Source: Naegleria gruberi (taxonomy: Eukaryota). From it: 64,000 nucleotides of DNA. Shown in pieces: positions 13,703 to 49,295 of the stretch. The DNA is taken from NCBI GenBank assembly GCA_000004985.1, contig GG738868.1. One strand, given 5' to 3'. The first letter of the stretch is position 1. Every line of letters starts with the position of its first letter. The position numbers were made by a program, and so were the translations under genes. The notes under the pieces were generated by a model, which saw nothing but the letters and a program-made list of their open reading frames with translations, ran no database searches and was not told the origin of the DNA.

Positions 13703-14272
13703 ATGGACGGAATTAATTTACTCGAAACTGATCATACCAAGCTTCGTGACAAGATTTCACAATTCAGAAATAATGATAACTGGACAAGTCGTCAACTGTT
13801 GATCAAGGAAATTATTTCAAATGTGTGCCAACACACTTCTGCTGAGGAAAGATATCTCTACGATTTGATTACCCAAAAATTCGACAATGGAAAATTCCTC
13901 TACGATAAGCAATTGATCGACAATCAAGTCCACAAGGAAATGATGCAATTCTTACTCGACAAGATTGATATTCTCTCAGTTGGAAATATGTCATTCCGTG
14001 ATTCCTATCAACAAGAATGTGAAAAACTCTTCTCAGTTCTCGAAGATCACATGAAGGAAGAAGAACAATTAGTTTTCCCTAAACTTCGTGAAACTCTCAA
14101 CACTACTGAATTGAGTGATTTGTACAAGAATTTGGAATGGGCAAAACAAAATGCTCCAACCAGACCACATCCATCAACTCCAGTTGTTGGATCAAAGATT
14201 TTACATCCAGTTGCTGGACTTGTTGATTCACTTACTGAAAGTTTGACTGGAACTACTAATGTTAACAAGTAA
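13703..14272 (+). CDS. hemerythrin-like (HHE cation-binding) domain protein
   Basis: ATG at 13703. His/Glu spacing (HTKLRD...HTSAEE...HKEMMQFL...HMKEEEQLVFPKL) fits the four-helix H..HxxxE pattern of hemerythrin-like domains. This assignment is moderate only. Confidence 0.4.
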   Translation: MDGINLLETDHTKLRDKISQFRNNDNWTSRQLLIKEIISNVCQHTSAEERYLYDLITQKFDNGKFLYDKQLIDNQVHKEMMQFLLDKIDILSVGNMSFRDSYQQECEKLFSVLEDHMKEEEQLVFPKLRETLNTTELSDLYKNLEWAKQNAPTRPHPSTPVVGSKILHPVAGLVDSLTESLTGTTNVNK

Positions 14273-14631: not shown

Positions 14632-16120
14632 ATGAATCCCGTAGATCCGAATTGGATTGAAACTCAACATCGTTCCTTTTTAAATTGGACGAATAGTCAA
14701 CTACGAAACAAACATGTTCAATTGACTAATTTAACAGAAGATTTAAAGAGTGGAGTCCATTTACTTGAATTACTCTCCGAATTACTTCATACTCCAATAC
14801 ACATTCCAATTACAAATCCACAGTTTAGAATACAAATGATGAATAACTTGACAGAAGCTTTGGAAATTATTCGAAAGGATTGTGACATTTCCTTGATAAA
14901 TATTGATTCGAATGATATAGTAGATGGAAATACCAAGTTAGTTTTAGCATTAATTCACTCATTGATGTATAAATATCAAGTATGTAAAGCAATGAGTGAT
15001 GACAGAAATGTCATTGACAAGAATACGCCAATGACAGTTGTTGAAAAGCAATTAATTGATTGGTTGAATTCAATTTTATATAATTCTCAACCTGTAATTA
15101 CAAATATTACAAATGATTGGACAAATGGTGAACATTTGAAAAATCTAGTTCATTATTTTCTTCCACATAATTTCGAACAAGTATTCGAAAGTTTGAATTC
15201 AATGAATCCGACTGAGAAAATTGCAGAATGTATTAAATTAGCTGATCAAGAATTGAAAATTCCAAAGATTTTAGAAGCTCAAGATATTTCCAATGGTCCA
15301 GATCAATTTTCCATGTTGGCTTATTTATCCTATTATAGAATGGCAATTAAGAAACAATTAGATCAGAAACCACCATTGGTAGAAACTGTTTCTAATACTC
15401 CTCCTCTTCCTCAACCAACAACCAATAGAAGTGGTACAAGTTCCTCCTCCTCCTCAACAACAACCATCATTGGTAGCTCAACAAGTTCCTCCTCCACCAA
15501 TTCAAGTCGAAACTAAACCAATTTCACAGCCAACAGTTTCTTCTATGAATTTTGATGATATTTCAAGTGCTCCACCATTGTCTCCTCCTTCCATTGATGA
15601 GCAAAAATTTAATTATCAACAACAACCTCCAGTCCAGAATTGGAATTTACAACCAAGTCAACCAGTCCAACCAGTTCAATATTATCCACAATCTCATCAA
15701 CAATCATTGACCAAATCAACCTATCTTCCAGATCAATCCAATCAAGCAAATTCTCACATTTCTTCATTATATTCACCTGGAAATTCAAATTCTGTTCAAC
15801 TCATTCCACAAATTCCTTCTCCAAATCAACAAGTGTACGGACAAGAAAACAATCATCAATCATTGATGGTTCCACCACCTCTAATGCCAACACAATCATT
15901 GCAACCATACATGGATCCATATCAACAGTTTAATGGAATACCAACTCAACACATGATGATGATGAATCAATATTCTCCTCAAATGCAACCTCCTCCACAA
16001 ATGCCTCCACAACAGCAACGACAACCAATGATTATCACCACAACTACTACTACAAATAATCATCAAGTATTCACATCGGATAATATGCAATATGGATATT
16101 ATCAACAACAATTTTATTGA
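14632..16120 (+). CDS. tandem calponin-homology (CH1-CH2) actin-binding-domain protein with Pro/Gln-rich tail
   Basis: CH1 is WIETQHRSFLNWTNSQLRNKHVQLTNLTEDLKSGVHLLELLSELL. CH2 is VVEKQLIDWLNSIL...NITNDWTNGEHLKNLVHYFLP. The reading frame shifts by +1 between table ORFs 14632..15516 and 15431..16120, which overlap at 15385-15516. Either a short intron (for example donor near 15383/15395 and acceptor ...cattggtAG near 15476) or a frameshift joins the CH domains to the P/Q-rich tail (QVPPPPQQQP...QMPPQQQRQP). Confidence 0.6.
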
Positions 16121-16467: not shown

Positions 16468-18339
16468 ATGACCCCATTCAAGAATCTAGTGCTTGCACTA
16501 TTGGGTCTTGTCTGCTTGACACTTATTACAAACTCTGTACAAAGTTCAAGCATGCCATCCATCATTAGAAGACAATTGACATATAAGAAATGTGAATCCA
16601 TTGGTGATCCACATTATCTTTCATTCACTGGTCAACGTTTCGATCACATGGGTTTAGGAGATTACGTTCTTGCTCAATCATCTGATAATCAATTCACTGT
16701 TCATGTCAGAACTAGTAAGTGGGGAGGTGCTGCAGCTGTCAATTCCAATGTTGCTGTCAGATTAGGTAAAGGAGAAGATGATACTTTCGAATATGATGTC
16801 GAACAAGATGTTTTTTACATTTCTGGTGTAAAGGCAAGTGTAGCTGTCAATCAAAAAGTTTCACTTGGAACAGGTGACATTCACAGATTGAATTCTAACA
16901 CTGCTGTCATTTCTGCATCCAATGGAGTCAAGATGACAATGTCTTGGTATCGTCATGCTGCTTGGAAACAACAATTAGGTTCGGTTGGCTACATTTCAGC
17001 TGTCATTGATGCTCCAAGTGATGTCAATTTCAGTAAGGGAATGTGTCTTGGCATTAATCAAGCATCTCAACAAGCAATTGACATTTTGCACAATCACGTT
17101 CAGAGAAGAATTGCTAGAAAGGCAGAACTCTTGAAGGAAACTCCAAAGAGAAAGAGAACTGCACGAAAGGTCTGTAAGAAAGCTGGTTTAAAGAAGAAAC
17201 AAAATCCATTCGCTTGGAAGTCATGTGTCAAGGATGCCATTCAATCAGGTGCCAAGATTGGTTTGGCAATTGGTAAAACCATTAAGAAGGTTAAAGTTGC
17301 TGAAAAGAAAGTTCTGAAAAAGGCAATGAAGAAGAGAGGCAAGAAAATTGTTCGAAAGGTAAAGAAGGGAATTAAAAAGGCAGAGAAACAAGTTGACTTG
17401 TTGAAGAAGAAGGCTGATCAAGCTCAAAAGAAGGCAACTGCAAAGAAAAACAAGTGTGCTAAGCGTGCTTCCAGAAAGGCCAGACGTGCTGCTAGAAGAG
17501 CCAGACGTGCCCAAAAGAAACTTGCAAAGAAACAACAAATTCTTGAAAAGGTCAAGAAAACTGTCAAGAAAACTATCAAGAAAGTTGGTCGTCGTGTGAG
17601 AAAGGTCAGAATTGTCAAGAATTGGAACAAGCTCATCAAGAAGGTCAGAAGGGACAGAAAGAGAGCCATGAAAGCTGCTAAGAAAGCTAAGAAAGCTGCT
17701 AAAAGAGCCATCAAGGAAGCAACCAGAAAGGCAAGACAACTGGCAGAAGAAAAGAAGAAACAAGCTGAAGAATTAGCTAAAAAGCTCCAAAGAGATGCTG
17801 AAGCAGCTGCCAAGAAATTGAGAGATGCTGTCGAAGCTGCTGCAAGAAAGGCAAGAGAGGCTGCCGAAAGAGCCAGACAACAAGCTGAAAATGCCAGATT
17901 GAAAGCTACTCGTCGTGCTAGAAAACAAGCTGAAAGATTGGCCAAGTTGGCCAGAGAAGCTGCTGAAAGAGCTGCCAAGCAACAAAGAGCCATTCTTGAA
18001 CAAATTCAAAAGCTTGCCAAATTGGCTGCCATCAAGAAAGCTCAACAACAAGCTGAAGCAAAGAAGAGAGCTGCCAAAGCTTTGAGAAAGGTTGAACAAG
18101 CCAAGAGAAAGGCAGCTGAAGCTCTTGAACGTGCCAAAGCGGAAGCAACCAGAAGATCTATTGAATTGGCTGATAAATTGAGAAAAGCTGCTGAAAGAGC
18201 TGCTAAAGAAGCAGTTGAAAGAGTCAAAAAAGTTGAGGAATTGAAGAAGAAGGCCATTAAGGAAGTTGAAGAAAGGGCCAGAAAACTTCTTACTGGAGGT
18301 GTTTCAAAGGGAAAGACTGTTTGTTTAAGACTTCCATAA
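16468..18339 (+). CDS. secreted protein: signal peptide + VWD-like domain (GDPH motif) + about 420-aa polybasic Lys/Arg/Ala-rich helical tail
   Basis: ATG at 16468. The signal peptide is MTPFKNLVLALLGLVCLTLITNSVQSS. KCESIGDPHYLSFTGQRFDHMGLGDYVLAQSSDNQFTVHVRT matches the N-terminal signature of von Willebrand factor type D domains (C-x3-GDPHY-x-[ST]F-x-G...Y-L). From about aa 200 the protein is more than 50% K/R/A (KKAMKKRGKKIVRKVKKGIKKAEK...), grading into mixed-charge KAAE/ERAR heptad-like helices. Codon choice is strongly biased (aag/aga/gct/gtt). Confidence 0.7.
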   Translation: MTPFKNLVLALLGLVCLTLITNSVQSSSMPSIIRRQLTYKKCESIGDPHYLSFTGQRFDHMGLGDYVLAQSSDNQFTVHVRTSKWGGAAAVNSNVAVRLGKGEDDTFEYDVEQDVFYISGVKASVAVNQKVSLGTGDIHRLNSNTAVISASNGVKMTMSWYRHAAWKQQLGSVGYISAVIDAPSDVNFSKGMCLGINQASQQAIDILHNHVQRRIARKAELLKETPKRKRTARKVCKKAGLKKKQNPFAWKSCVKDAIQSGAKIGLAIGKTIKKVKVAEKKVLKKAMKKRGKKIVRKVKKGIKKAEKQVDLLKKKADQAQKKATAKKNKCAKRASRKARRAARRARRAQKKLAKKQQILEKVKKTVKKTIKKVGRRVRKVRIVKNWNKLIKKVRRDRKRAMKAAKKAKKAAKRAIKEATRKARQLAEEKKKQAEELAKKLQRDAEAAAKKLRDAVEAAARKAREAAERARQQAENARLKATRRARKQAERLAKLAREAAERAAKQQRAILEQIQKLAKLAAIKKAQQQAEAKKRAAKALRKVEQAKRKAAEALERAKAEATRRSIELADKLRKAAERAAKEAVERVKKVEELKKKAIKEVEERARKLLTGGVSKGKTVCLRLP

Positions 18340-20206: not shown

Positions 20207-22463
20207 TTAATGTAATTGACCATCTTGTGTATCCAAATCAATATTGGATGATATTTCAGATCTAGTATCACCAAAATCAGAGTATGAACTATATAAAGGT
20301 TGTTTCAAACTGGATGAATCAAGTGAATTGGCAAATTCTTTAACTTCATCTCCTCCAACTTCGTCCCTCTCCCTAACAGAAGGCCAAACTCCAAATATTA
20401 CAAATACAAATAAACATGAGATGACCAACATCCACCCCAAAACAAGTGACAAAATGTCATATTCATAAACAATCTTTCCATCAGGTGATTGATTTCTATG
20501 ATTGGTAGAAAATGGTTGAATGCACTCAGTTACAATATTCCAAACAACGAGTATGAATAATAGAACAGGTCCAATGTACTTGATGGAAATGCTCCACAAA
20601 ATGTAAGGTCCAAATGAAGTTTCCTTGGAGAATCGTTCCCTTACATGTTCAATAGAAAAGAAGGAAACCTGTTTGAAATTATTCCAATTCTTTTCCAAAC
20701 GGAATTGATTCCAACGTTTTGAAAAGTATTGGCAAATAGAAATCCAATAGGTTATTGATTTGGTTCTTCTGAGTGCCTTTTTCTTTTTTCTATTGACTCC
20801 TCCATCTTGGTTGGAAGAGAACCATCCAATCATGACACATTCCATCATGGCAATCATTCCCATTCCATAATTTCCAACATAGTGATCTACAATTTCCAAA
20901 ATATAATACCCATTGGAGAGTGTGAATGGCACTGCAATCACACAAATGAGACAAACCACAATAATTGAAACAACTAATCGTCTGGTATTTCTACGAGGTA
21001 TTTGATTCTTGACAATATCAATCATGGACTCTACAAAACACATTATACTGTTAAATCCAACAAAGACTAGAGAAAGCAAGAGAATGAACACAAAAATTTG
21101 TGGTGTTGGGAATAATCTAGAAACTACTTCAATCATGACGAATAGAGGACTCGCAATCGCAGGAGTAAAGAGTGAATTGATTTCATAAGGACTGGTCCTA
21201 GTAGTCGAAAGATAACCTAAACTAGCATAATAGGTCAATCCACTAATTAAGGAAAATAACAATCCAAAGAAAATGATAGTCCACGAAGTGAAAATAGTAT
21301 CCTTCTTCGTCTTGTACTGTGAAGCATGAATAGCAAGAGCACCATTGGCAATACCATATGTGAAACATAATTGTCCAAAAGCTCCCAACCATAAATCTCC
21401 CTTTGCTAATAAGCTCCAATTTGGTCTGAGGAATTGCAACATTCCTGAACTAGCTCCAATTTCCAATGACACTCTAACCAATACAACAATCATAACCACC
21501 AGATACGACAAGCTCAATAATGAAATGATGACTCGAGAAAATCTATTGATGTACTGGGCAAAAACGAGCCAATAGGTAAGAAACCAGAAACAAACTAGAG
21601 AAACCAGTATTGGCCATGAAAGGAATCCTGAAAGATCAAATGAGTGATCTGAGAGATGCAATATTTCATCGTGAAAGAAGGTTTCTGGTTTATCAGACCA
21701 TGGAAATCTATATTTTCATCCAAAATATTGAAAAACAATGTTTCCAATTCAAATTAAATTGAAATACGTACTGTTCCATAAAAACATATCCAAAATAAGT
21801 TGCAATCCAACAAGTAATCACAGAATAATAAGAAGCAATAATCAAACTTCCAAAAACAATTGCTGCCATTCCAATTCCACTAGCTCTCCTATTCCACCTT
21901 CCCAATGCAAAGACAATCGATTGCTTGGCAATAGAACCCAATGTGAAATCCAAAATAATCAAAGGAGCTCCAATGATCACTAATAATACAATATATGGTA
22001 TAAAGAATGCACCTCCCTCGAATTGGTGCACTAAATAAGGGAATCTAATAACACTTCCAAACGTCATTGAGAATCCCACTGTTAAAATCAATGATTCCAA
22101 CATTCTTGCAATGACAAGGCTCTTCTTTTCATGTACAACAGAATTGCCTTGATCATTAGCAGCAGATGAGTAATAGTACAATGATGTCTGGTTATTTCCT
22201 CCGATTCCATGTTTGACAAACTTGTCATCAGCACCATGAGCACCACCACCATCATTAATACTCATCATTGAAGGAGAAGAATTTACAAAATGATTAGATG
22301 ATGAAATTCTGTGATTTGTTGATGGCTTATCTTCATGACTATCAATGGAACCATAATGAGTGGTGGGAATGTAATTGTGTTGTGAGGATTGCGAAAGGGC
22401 CCTTCCTCTCTGCTTATCATAATATTCATCATCATCATAATACAATTGATTATTATTCATCAT
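20207..22463 (-). CDS. SLC6 (SNF) sodium-dependent neurotransmitter/amino-acid transporter, 2 exons
   Basis: Exons 21772..22463 and 20207..21707, with a 64-nt intron 21708..21771 (GTACGT...ATATAG). The phase was checked: 692 nt, then 2+1501 nt. TM1 signature IRFPYLVHQFEGGAFFIPYIVLLVIIGAPLIILDFTLG (compare [22 protein letters not shown]). Downstream is a polytopic region ...GAFGQLCFTYGIANGALAIHASQ..., about 730 aa in total. Confidence 0.85.
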
Positions 22464-46659: not shown

Positions 46660-47830
46660 AAGTAATAGTTTTATATTTTAATCATTTCTCAATAATTTTT
46701 TGCACTTTCTTGTGGTATGGTTTTGTATCTTCATTTGATTTCATTTTTATTTTTCAAAAATATTTTGTAATTCCTTTTTTGGAAGCCTCAGAAGAACCAT
46801 CATTTTTTTCACATCCCCTGTACTTTAATTTTCCAAACATTCTCAACCCAAAATCAATTCATCTCTCCACAAACTATTCTCCACCTTCACTTTCACCGAA
46901 ATATCAATTCTACCATTCATCCTTTATCTCGCTCAATTTTAATACAACCAATCAAGCATACTTCAATATTTTGTAAAAATAGCAAAAAAACGCCATACGC
47001 TCGAGTTATTACTTGTTCTTTCCCGCCAAAATCTCAGTTAGTATTTGTGGTAAGTGAGAGGACAACTCATTCTTGGTTTTGGTGTCACTCATCTCTATGA
47101 GATCTTGCAAACTGGAATGCAATCACTCTGTAGATGCAACGATATCTACAGAAATTTTACATTTTCCTCAACAAAATCTTGATAAACTTAGAGATAAATC
47201 TTTAGCCTATACTTTAATGCACTTTCTTCAAGTGTTTATTACAGTTTGTTGTCATGTAACAATATTTGGAATAGAGCACGAATCTTGATTGAGTCACTAA
47301 GTTTTCCTTCTTTACAAAAACCAAGCATATCAAAAAATCCCTGCCTAAATTGTTCCTAATTTTTGCTCTTCAACATTTGATTGGATCTTCAAAAAGAGAC
47401 TGGACGAATTGAATAGAGACACACTCATTACCGACTTTTGATGCTATCAATACACTTGTCTCAAAACTATTTCACATCTTCTATATACTTCATACAAAAC
47501 TTATTCGAAACATATTGTTAAAACTAATCAACATTATCCTTCTCGTTGTATGGAATCTGATACTCCCAATTGATGAACCTGTATTGTCAATTGACTGCTC
47601 CACTACATCGAAATAGTAAAGAGTTATTCTTTCAACATCCAAAATGTCACCCAAACCGCTAATTCAAATGACTTTCTTCTTCGCATCAGTGATTCGACAT
47701 GCTCGTGTCACCAATCCCCCATCATTTCACAACTAGTAATGTGTTCTCTCTGCTGAGCAATATTTAAAATGTCACTCGAGCCAACTGCCAATCAAATCAT
47801 CCACATAAAAAAATTCACAATTTATAACAA

Positions 47831-49064
47831 GATGAATAAGACCCTCTTGTTCGCATTAGCCATGCTTTTCTGCATGGTTGCTTTCGTTTCTGCTGGTCCA
47901 TCTGCCAGTGCTGAAACTCTCGCTGCCACCACATTGTGCAACACTTTAGGAAATAAAACTAAAGGATGTGTCAAGTCATCTAGAAAACTCTTGAAAAGAG
48001 TTCCAAAGAATAAGAGAAGACAAGTTAAGAGATTGTTAAAGAAGGCCAGAAAGAATGCTCGTAAAGCAAAGAAACAACAAAGAAAGCTCAGAAAATTGAG
48101 AAGATGTGCCAAGAAGGCTAAATCTTTGAAGAAGAGAAGACAATGTAGAAGAGCATTGAAGAAGGTTGTTAAGAAGATCAAGAAGGCTAGACGTGCTGCT
48201 AGAAGAGCTGCCAAGAAGGCTGCTAAGAAGGCTAGAAAGGCCAGAAGATCTGCTAGACGTGCTGCTAGAAGAAAGGCCAGAAAAGCTTTGAAGAAGGCTA
48301 AGAAATCCTTGAAGAAGAGAAGAGCTTTGAAGAGAGCTGTCAGAAAGGGTAGAAAGTTCGGAAGAAAGGTCAGAAAGGTCAGAAAGTGTAAGAGATCTTC
48401 CTCAAGAAAGACCAGACGTGCTGCCAAGAGAAGAGTCAAGAAGGCAGTTAAGAAGGCTTTGAGAAAGTTGAAGAAACAATTGAAGAAGGCTAGAAAGGTT
48501 GCTAAGAAGGCTGCCAAGAAGGCTAGAAAGGCTAGAAGATTGAGAAGAAGACCAGCTAGAAAATGTAGACGTGTCTCAAAGAAGTCCATTAAGAGAGCTG
48601 TTAAGAGAGTTGTCAAGAGAGCTGTTAAGAAGGCTACTTTGAAGCTCAGAAAGCAATTGAAGAAGGCTAAGAAGCAAGTCAAGAAGGCTAGAAAGGTTGC
48701 CAAGAAGGCTGTTAAGAAGGCCAGAAAGGTTGTCAAGAAGGTCAAGAAGACTTGTAGAAGAAAGGTCAAGAAGGCTGCCAAGAAGATTGCTAAGAGAAGA
48801 TCTGCTGCCAAGAAGGTCGTCTTGAAGAAGGCTGCTGCTAAAAAGTTGAACAAGGTTGTTAACAAGTTGTTGAAATTGAAGAAGAAGCTCGGTAAGAGAT
48901 TCAACCCAAAGAAACACATCCCAAAGAAGGTTAGAAAGGTCTTGAGAAAATTGAGAATTTCTGCCAAGTGTGTCAAGAAGGTCAAGAAGGCTGCCAAGAA
49001 GGTTAAGGTCTCAAAGGCTTTGTTGAACAAGTTGAGAAAGGTTTCTTCCAAGTGTAGAAAGTAA
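47831..49064 (+). CDS. secreted hyper-basic Lys/Arg-rich protein with regularly spaced cysteines (about 410 aa, more than 55% K+R)
   Basis: The table ORF starts at ATG 47769. A second in-frame ATG at 47831 begins a canonical signal peptide MNKTLLFALAMLFCMVAFVSAGPSASA. The mature protein is nearly pure K/R/A/V/L (KKARKNARKAKKQQRKLRKLRRCAKKAKSLKKRRQCRRALKK...). About 10 Cys occur at semi-regular spacing, and dozens of dibasic sites are present. Codon use is strongly biased (aag/aga/gct/gtt/gtc/ttg). Confidence 0.65.
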
Positions 49065-49295
49065 ATCAATTTCATTTGAATTTGAATCATTAAATTATTA
49101 AATACATATTTGGAAATTCAATTATTAATTTACCCATAAATTTGTTATTGTATTGCGTTTTGAAAAAAGCATGTAGATCAACAAAACTGATATGTATTGT
49201 AATATTATTTTAAATTGATTGGAAAAATTGTAAACTTTCAAAAAACGAAAAATTTGGTAATTCAAGATTAATTTTTTTTGAATTTGATAAAAAAA

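Follow-up and report, generated by a model that had tools for sequence, protein, structure and literature searches.

A VWD-headed open reading frame with a GDPH motif

The window analysed here, a 64,000-nucleotide stretch of the Naegleria gruberi genome (assembly GCA_000004985.1, contig GG738868.1), contains at 16468..18339 on the plus strand an uninterrupted, complete coding sequence of 623 codons and a stop, which starts at the first ATG downstream of a stop codon and is surrounded by DNA with a GC content of 32-37%. This open reading frame (ORF) encodes a polybasic protein headed by a VWD domain, which we infer to be secreted, and a GDPH tetrapeptide near its N-terminus is probably a site of autocatalytic cleavage. 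The features of the gene are as follows.

16468..16545, plus strand: predicted signal peptide, residues 1-26, with cleavage between VQS and SS
16546..16608, plus strand: predicted N-terminal cleavage product, residues 27-47 (SSMPSIIRRQLTYKKCESIGD; 21 residues, ~2.4 kDa), containing strand beta1 (model residues 11-17, protein residues 39-45)
16582..17052, plus strand: VWD beta-sandwich domain, residues ~39-195
16591..16593, plus strand: Cys42, at Asp-5; N-terminal half of the predicted disulfide that would tether beta1
16603..16614, plus strand: GDPH motif, residues 46-49, with the predicted scissile bond between Asp47 and Pro48 (nucleotides 16606-16611)
16657..16662, plus strand: Gly64-Asp65, which replaces the canonical G-x-C-x-Y cysteine (G-x-G-D-Y); invariant across the family
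16708..16710, plus strand: Arg81, invariant across the family
17044..17046, plus strand: Cys193 (in G-M-C); C-terminal half of the predicted tethering disulfide
17137..17253, plus strand: putative reduced C8-like helical module, residues ~224-262, with invariant Cys236, Cys253 and Asp256
17254..18291, plus strand: polycationic amphipathic helical tail, residues ~263-608, recognized from composition, charge, hydrophobic moment and a low-confidence model
18322..18324, plus strand: conserved Cys619 in the terminal C-L-R-L-P (CIRIA or CLRIA in orthologues); C619 and R621 are invariant in the alignment

The signal peptide was called by inspection of the sequence (hydrophobicity and the -3/-1 rule): the N-terminus reads MTPFKNLVLALLGLVCLTLITNSVQS followed by SS, with a site that fits the -3/-1 rule after residue 26, and its hydrophobic region, LALLGLVCLTLI, has a mean Kyte-Doolittle value of 2.89 over 12 residues. 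Relatives of the 623-residue protein have equivalent signal-like N-terminal segments. If the signal peptidase cuts after residue 26, Gly46 becomes residue 20 of the mature protein, in agreement with a sequence-only reading of the window that had placed GDPH about 20 residues beyond the signal peptidase site.

The motif to which that reading drew attention lies at 16594-16620 on the plus strand, which translates to ESIGDPHYL (residues 43-51), and the observation is borne out in three respects. The GDPH is the only one in a six-frame translation of the window; it is rare by chance, with 0.07-0.09 bare GDPH motifs expected per window (estimated from amino-acid frequencies and from 200 block shuffles); and it is embedded in a VWD-start signature. 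The local form is C-x3-GDPH-Y-x2-F-x-G-x2-F-D, and the extended signature C-x3-GDPH-[YFL]-x2-[FL]-x-[GN]-x2-[YFV]-[DLNE] occurs once in the window.

The Pfam VWD profile (PF00094, gathering score 22.9) matches residues 42-165 with 34.7 bits in the full protein and 36.4 bits in residues 29-290, and it also matches 15 of 16 family members. The top sequence match in the PDB is mouse FCGBP, and the alignment passes through kCesiGDPHYlsFtGqrFDhmG. From an alignment of 16 family sequences, AlphaFold2 gave a confident model of residues 29-290 (predicted local distance difference test, pLDDT, 92.8; predicted template modelling score, pTM, 0.90), in which helices follow a beta-sandwich. In the model, GDPH occupies residues 18-21, between strands beta1 (11-17) and beta2 (21-23), which is the published position for cleavable VWD domains (PMC10880436). 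A Foldseek comparison with the PDB gave 48 matches with E <= 0.001, all of them VWD domains: MUC5AC, VWF, MUC2, MUC5B, FCGBP, Cypridina luciferase and RGMB. The sequence-only reading had named the lack of a VWD fold in a structure prediction as grounds for its own rejection, and a confident VWD sandwich surrounds the motif. Membership of the RGM family was rejected; the protein has no RGM match, and only 2 of 16 relatives match RGM_C, with E of about 1e-3.

The exact 623-residue sequence is missing from a collection of 15 billion protein sequences that does contain the neighbouring N. gruberi protein EFC44328.1, and a full-length word search returned only paralogues and orthologues, at 41-46% identity; it gave no N. 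gruberi model identical to the ORF or overlapping with it. Neither the ORF nor its neighbour had an exact match in a contig index. Because the collection holds no exact match and only these relatives, the gene appears to be absent from the deposited N. gruberi proteome, either unannotated or differently modelled. This absence, together with the low complexity of the 3′ two-thirds of the ORF and the long mirror ORFs on the opposite strand, might suggest a coincidental motif in a non-genic or low-complexity ORF, or in a pseudogene. Such an origin is extremely improbable, and a chance motif or non-genic ORF is effectively refuted by the low expectation for GDPH, by the homologues and by the amphipathic periodicity of the tail, which is far above that of shuffled sequences (see below). 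The frame is open for 623 codons in DNA of 33-37% GC, the Pfam and PDB matches are significant, an exhaustive HMMER search found 512 relatives, and orthologue-like proteins have the same architecture, invariant Cys positions and C-terminal C-x-R.

Predicted self-cleavage at Asp47-Pro48 and a predicted tethering disulfide

All 16 family domains in the alignment carry GDPH without change, at an identity to the query of only 23-51%. Elsewhere in the VWD fold the same positions hold GDVH, GDTH, GDFH, GGAH and similar tetrapeptides. Since the fold tolerates other residues, this strict invariance argues for selection on the chemistry of cleavage and not only on the structure of a turn. Mutagenesis of FCGBP has shown that the Asp and His of GDPH are essential (PMC10880436), and both are kept in the Naegleria protein, as Asp47 and His49. 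When FCGBP is aligned with the family profile, its chains 8r0t_C, 8qci_B and 8r0t_B start (residue 1) at the position of the GDPH Pro; thus, the experimentally observed break aligns exactly with Asp47-Pro48. In the cited literature every GDPH-bearing VWD domain tested in vivo is cleaved, including all 11 FCGBP sites, MUC2, MUC5AC, RGM and BMPER. Sequence, predicted fold, alignment with cleaved sites, conservation and Cys covariation (described below) support the identification of GDPH as a VWD/RGM-type GD/PH autoproteolysis site, and by analogy with the proteins above the Asp47-Pro48 bond is likely to be cleaved autocatalytically in Naegleria.

By analogy with FCGBP, MUC2, MUC5AC, RGM and BMPER, the side chain of Asp47 would attack its own backbone carbonyl with the assistance of His49. 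A bond to Pro is intrinsically labile, and Asp47-Pro48 would break via a transient C-terminal Asp anhydride, which would normally be hydrolysed. Cleavage would take place after folding, in transit through the secretory pathway. The large chain, P48-P623, would have a mass of 64.6 kDa and an isoelectric point of 10.9. A cut chain would yield the semi-tryptic peptide PHYLSFTGQR and a peptide ending in CESIGD, and an uncut chain would yield the tryptic peptide CESIGDPHYLSFTGQR.

The canonical set of intradomain VWD cysteines (G-x-C-x-Y, C-G-L-C-G-N) is lacking in the Naegleria domain, in which Cys42 and Cys193 are the only Cys residues. The full set is typical of metazoan VWD domains and is not demanded by the profile, and Cys-free prokaryotic VWD relatives exist. 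Val91 is invariant across the family, as are Gly64-Asp65 and Arg81. A GD[YFW] signature is common to the Naegleria family and to the Cys-free prokaryotic VWD domains (Halorubrum and RHS-associated).

The fragments of the first VWD domain of FCGBP are held together by C472-C611, with C472 at Asp-5 (PMC8267560), which is also the spacing of Cys42. In an alignment with 14 canonical VWD domains, Cys193 falls on the second Cys of C-G-L-C-G-N, which is invariant even where the first has been lost. Within the Cys-poor GD[YFW] subfamily, 28 domains carry the upstream Cys together with the downstream one, 8 carry neither, and none carries just one of them; these domains are not phylogenetically independent, but they cover several lineages. 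The 8 that carry neither Cys comprise a Naegleria subclade, Halorubrum and RHS-type metagenomic proteins. From position and covariation, we infer that Cys42 and Cys193 form a disulfide that keeps beta1 attached. Judging from its sequences, the family appears to have lost all VWD disulfides but the one that a cut chain would need.

The ~2.4 kDa beta1 peptide would accordingly stay bound after cleavage, giving a two-chain, disulfide-linked mature protein. The sequence-only reading therefore holds for the autoproteolysis motif, given the Pfam match, the fold, the structural neighbours and the FCGBP alignment, and needs correcting on the release of the N-terminus, which is unlikely because the fragments are predicted, from FCGBP spacing, alignment and covariation, to be linked through Cys42-Cys193. 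In FCGBP the documented outcome of cleavage is a local rearrangement with stabilization against proteases and heat (PMC10880436), and in Naegleria cleavage would probably mature or stabilize the VWD head and release nothing.

Several points weigh against cleavage and would suit a real VWD domain in which GDPH is kept as a structural turn only, so that the secreted Naegleria protein remains a single uncleaved chain. One expression host produced recombinant MUC2 D4 in uncleaved form although its GDPH was intact (PMC10880436), and GDPH within a VWD fold is no guarantee of cleavage. With most VWD disulfides lost and an invariant Gly64-Asp65 in place of a Cys, the Naegleria domain is unlike the VWD domains studied, and judging from these substitutions the surroundings of its scissile bond may differ from those in FCGBP. 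The literature searched contains no experiment on this protein or on any protist VWD domain, and no paper naming members of the family. The position at Asp+14, equivalent to Q4094 of FCGBP D10, which has a partial effect on cleavage (PMC10880436), is Met61 here and M, Y, Q or N in the family; it is uninformative, as other FCGBP domains reported to be cleaved also carry Met. An uncleaved turn is nevertheless rather unlikely, because the GDPH-VWD domains tested in vivo were all cut, because all four residues are invariant in 16 divergent domains although the fold tolerates others, and because the only disulfide retained is the one needed if the chain is cut. A Cys-poor VWD domain with a canonical autocatalytic GDPH, maturing to a two-chain disulfide-linked protein, is probably the correct account overall.

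It had also been suggested that cleavage could covalently reactivate the protein. Reactivation through the Asp anhydride is chemically possible by analogy with related chemistry, and is speculative for this protein. Cleavage would then serve covalent coupling, in which the Asp47 anhydride reacts with a hydroxyl or amine of a glycan, a matrix or cyst-wall component, or a protein, as in the inter-alpha-inhibitor heavy chains (ITIH), and the polycationic protein would be anchored via the beta1 peptide and its disulfide. There are precedents: the Asp of ITIH3 is esterified to chondroitin sulfate after D/PH cleavage, anhydride reactivity has been proposed for MUC2, and FrpC/NeissLock exploits ligation through an Asp-Pro anhydride. 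In FCGBP, however, the closest relative with a solved structure, the anhydride had been hydrolysed, cross-linked partners were not detected (PMC8267560) and the new C-terminus is buried; for the Naegleria protein no acceptor is known or predictable. Covalent coupling is thus very unlikely, and the two-chain protein with a hydrolysed anhydride is preferred.

The C8-like module, the polycationic tail and neighbouring features

The helical module that follows the VWD domain aligns with the start of C8 and with its C-x-x-D-x-C motif, and it overlays on VWD-C8 assemblies; from sequence and model it is a putative C8 remnant with two of the eight Cys. TIL and E modules are absent: no Cys-rich region lies downstream, and after residue 262 the protein continues as a K/R/A/E helical tail with no Pfam match. 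The VWD domain itself is compact, with ~160 residues, one predicted disulfide and one N-glycosylation sequon.

The label "polybasic" given earlier to this protein is justified: residues 206-622 contain 101 K, 83 A, 53 R and 33 E, with a net charge of about +114 and an isoelectric point of 11.4. Residues 211-420 carry +11 to +15 per 30 residues, and residues 421-600 are a mixed-charge A/E/K/R sequence. Gly374 is the sole helix breaker across residues 302-609, and the tail has 61 dibasic sites. Its helical hydrophobic moment averages double the value obtained from shuffles that preserve composition (z = 10.8; reached by 0 of 500 shuffles), with a sharp peak at 100 degrees, and the tails of four relatives are alike (z of 4.4-10.9, net charge of +55 to +162). 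The dominant periodicity is ~3.4-3.8 residues in the first half and a weaker ~2.8-3.2 in the second half; a search of the tail for the heptad signal of coiled coils found none. A full-length AlphaFold2 model (pLDDT 59) shows the tail as three long helices, with confidence too low for more than a helical tail. Because its helical amphipathicity is far above that of shuffles, the tail is an ordered cationic amphipathic helix rather than mere low-complexity sequence. This region of ~350 residues is presumably the working end of the protein and may bind polyanions or membranes, with bacterial surfaces, matrix or the substratum as possible targets. Relatives conserve the C-terminus as C-x-R-[IL]-[AP], and it may be conjectured that Cys619 forms an intermolecular disulfide.

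Other features of the window are listed below.

13703..14272: neighbouring ORF, an exact match to N. gruberi EFC44328.1 / XP_002677072.1, hemerythrin-like
14632..15516, plus strand: tandem calponin-homology-domain ORF with a Ser/Thr-rich end
15431..16120, plus strand: Q/P-rich ORF of 229 residues in another frame, overlapping the calponin-homology ORF
17245..17763, 17424..17993 and 47822..49090, minus strand: long L/F/S/A-rich antisense ORFs opposite the polybasic tails, mirroring AAG/GCT/AGA-rich codon runs
20207..21661 and 21708..22463, minus strand: two adjacent ORFs matching positions 9-124 and 167-443 of the Pfam SNF sodium:neurotransmitter symporter profile
47769..49064, plus strand: second secreted polybasic K/R/A-rich protein, with a probable start at an internal Met near nucleotide 47832

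The calponin-homology ORF and the Q/P-rich ORF probably belong to a single gene, in which a short intron or a frame change connects them, and the SNF pair looks like one gene split by a short intron. The neighbours other than the hemerythrin-like ORF are unrelated eukaryotic genes (the calponin-homology protein, the SNF transporter, a Sel1-repeat protein and a flavin reductase); therefore, there is no operon-type context. The L/F/S/A-rich antisense ORFs are almost certainly not genes.

The second polybasic protein has a signal peptide, MNKTLLFALAMLFCMVAFVSA, cleaved before GPS, and ~380 residues of basic sequence, with no VWD domain and no Pfam match; its tail probably explains why GC skew rises to a spike of 0.25 in the bin at 48-52 kb. 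The C-terminus of this second protein is a conserved two-Cys basic module (LKLKKKLGKRFNPKKH...KC...KC), which also ends an N. gruberi protein (P0003) and a Willaertia protein (P0012), begins N. fowleri-type proteins (P0041 and P0055) and is absent from the GDPH protein. Judging from this distribution, the polybasic part seems to be a module of its own, which in some proteins is joined to a GDPH-VWD head. The two polybasic tails of the window share composition, but they have no alignable similarity and neither matches Pfam; for this reason homology between them is not claimed, and only the terminal two-Cys basic module is treated as homologous.

Relatives, known self-processing systems and significance

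Relatives with a full-length domain, a VWD head and a basic tail occur in N. gruberi (EFC38641.1, with two VWD copies), N. fowleri, N. lovaniensis, Willaertia magna and environmental contigs. Those with the same architecture, from N. fowleri, N. lovaniensis, Willaertia and an ENA contig, are 41-53% identical; A0A6A5C1R4, XP_044566319.1, XP_044542426.1 and EFC38641.1, with the same head and polybasic tail, are true family members in this range. The Cys-poor GDPH-VWD type is also found in Ancoracysta, a haloarchaeon and an RHS-associated protein. A word-indexed search with the N-terminal domain gave no matches and one with the family profile only P0050, both being insensitive compared with the exhaustive HMMER search. 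Several Naegleria relatives in UniProt are automatically labelled "VWFD domain-containing protein", which is a domain label only, and this ORF is absent from the deposited proteins. Lang et al. 2016 (PMC4948705) had already recorded VWD domains in Naegleria. A literature search found no paper on the GDPH site, the single retained disulfide or the polybasic tail, and none citing a family member by locus tag or accession; a polymorphic-toxin paper and a cationic-peptide preprint that mention Naegleria contain nothing relevant to the GDPH protein.

Two groups of relatives vary at the sites discussed above. In P0020 and its cluster, from JGI metagenome contigs of the same Cys-poor subfamily, GNPH replaces GDPH; since an Asp-to-Asn change abolishes cleavage in FCGBP, this may be a natural non-cleaving variant. 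In the subclade of P0030, P0041 (N. fowleri KAF0981957) and P0055, both tethering Cys are absent (RGRGRGDPH ... RGLI[LV]DG), and a basic or proline-rich region lies N-terminal to GDPH. As far as can be judged from these sequences, GD/PH cleavage would leave their halves without a covalent link, providing a natural untethered contrast.

Among the systems in which GD/PH cleavage is proven, the VWD domains of FCGBP (D10, PDB 8QCI; mouse, 8RDE and 8R0T) belong to a metazoan protein with 13 tandem, Cys-rich VWD-C8-TIL-E assemblies. The Naegleria protein, in contrast, has one VWD domain with a single predicted disulfide, a C8 remnant, no TIL or E module and a helical tail of +114, and its cleavage is predicted. 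Compared with the gel-forming mucins and VWF (MUC2 D4 and MUC5AC, which have GDPH; MUC5B and VWF, most of whose D domains do not), it lacks PTS/mucin, TIL, E, CysD and CTCK regions and has no module for disulfide polymerization except the lone C-terminal Cys. Unlike RGMA/B/C and hemojuvelin, it has no RGM N-terminal domain, no glycosylphosphatidylinositol (GPI) anchor signal and no neogenin/BMP context. ITIH resembles the Naegleria site in that D/PH cleavage within a VWD-like beta-sandwich generates a reactive C-terminal Asp, which is the precedent for covalent coupling; in ITIH, however, the Asp ends a large functional chain that is esterified to chondroitin sulfate, whereas Asp47 would end a 21-residue peptide. 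A sequence relationship with ITIH was neither sought nor seen. The self-processing module of Neisseria FrpC ("NeissLock") has the same chemistry, autocatalytic Asp-Pro cleavage via an aspartic anhydride, but has an unrelated fold, is triggered by Ca2+ in a bacterial RTX context and has no family relationship. The Naegleria protein thus adds a new protist member, minimal in form and undescribed in architecture, to a self-processing domain family already known; it does not represent a new mechanism.

A broader proposal for Heterolobosea, which is doubtful at present, is that the GDPH-VWD head serves a family of secreted polycationic amphipathic-helix proteins as a self-processing handle; tethered members would have the head armed or stabilized, or would be coupled to a surface glycan via the anhydride, and the disulfide-less members (P0030, P0041 and P0055) would shed a polybasic segment. 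If true, this would amount to a system by which an amoeba that feeds on bacteria releases a pro-domain without a protease, for cationic effectors that may be antibacterial or adhesive, and to GD/PH autoprocessing outside animals, with the Halorubrum and RHS-associated proteins as prokaryotic counterparts.

The purpose of GD/PH cleavage is not understood even for the human proteins (PMC10880436). If cleavage is confirmed, the Naegleria protein would provide the first evidence, according to the literature searched, of self-processing by a GD/PH VWD domain in a protist far from animals, and its domain would offer an exceptionally simple system in which to study the chemistry of cleavage. The tethered, untethered and GNPH variants of the family, together with the fusion to the tail, would form a comparative series for the purpose of cleavage, and close relatives of the protein occur in the pathogen N. 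fowleri.

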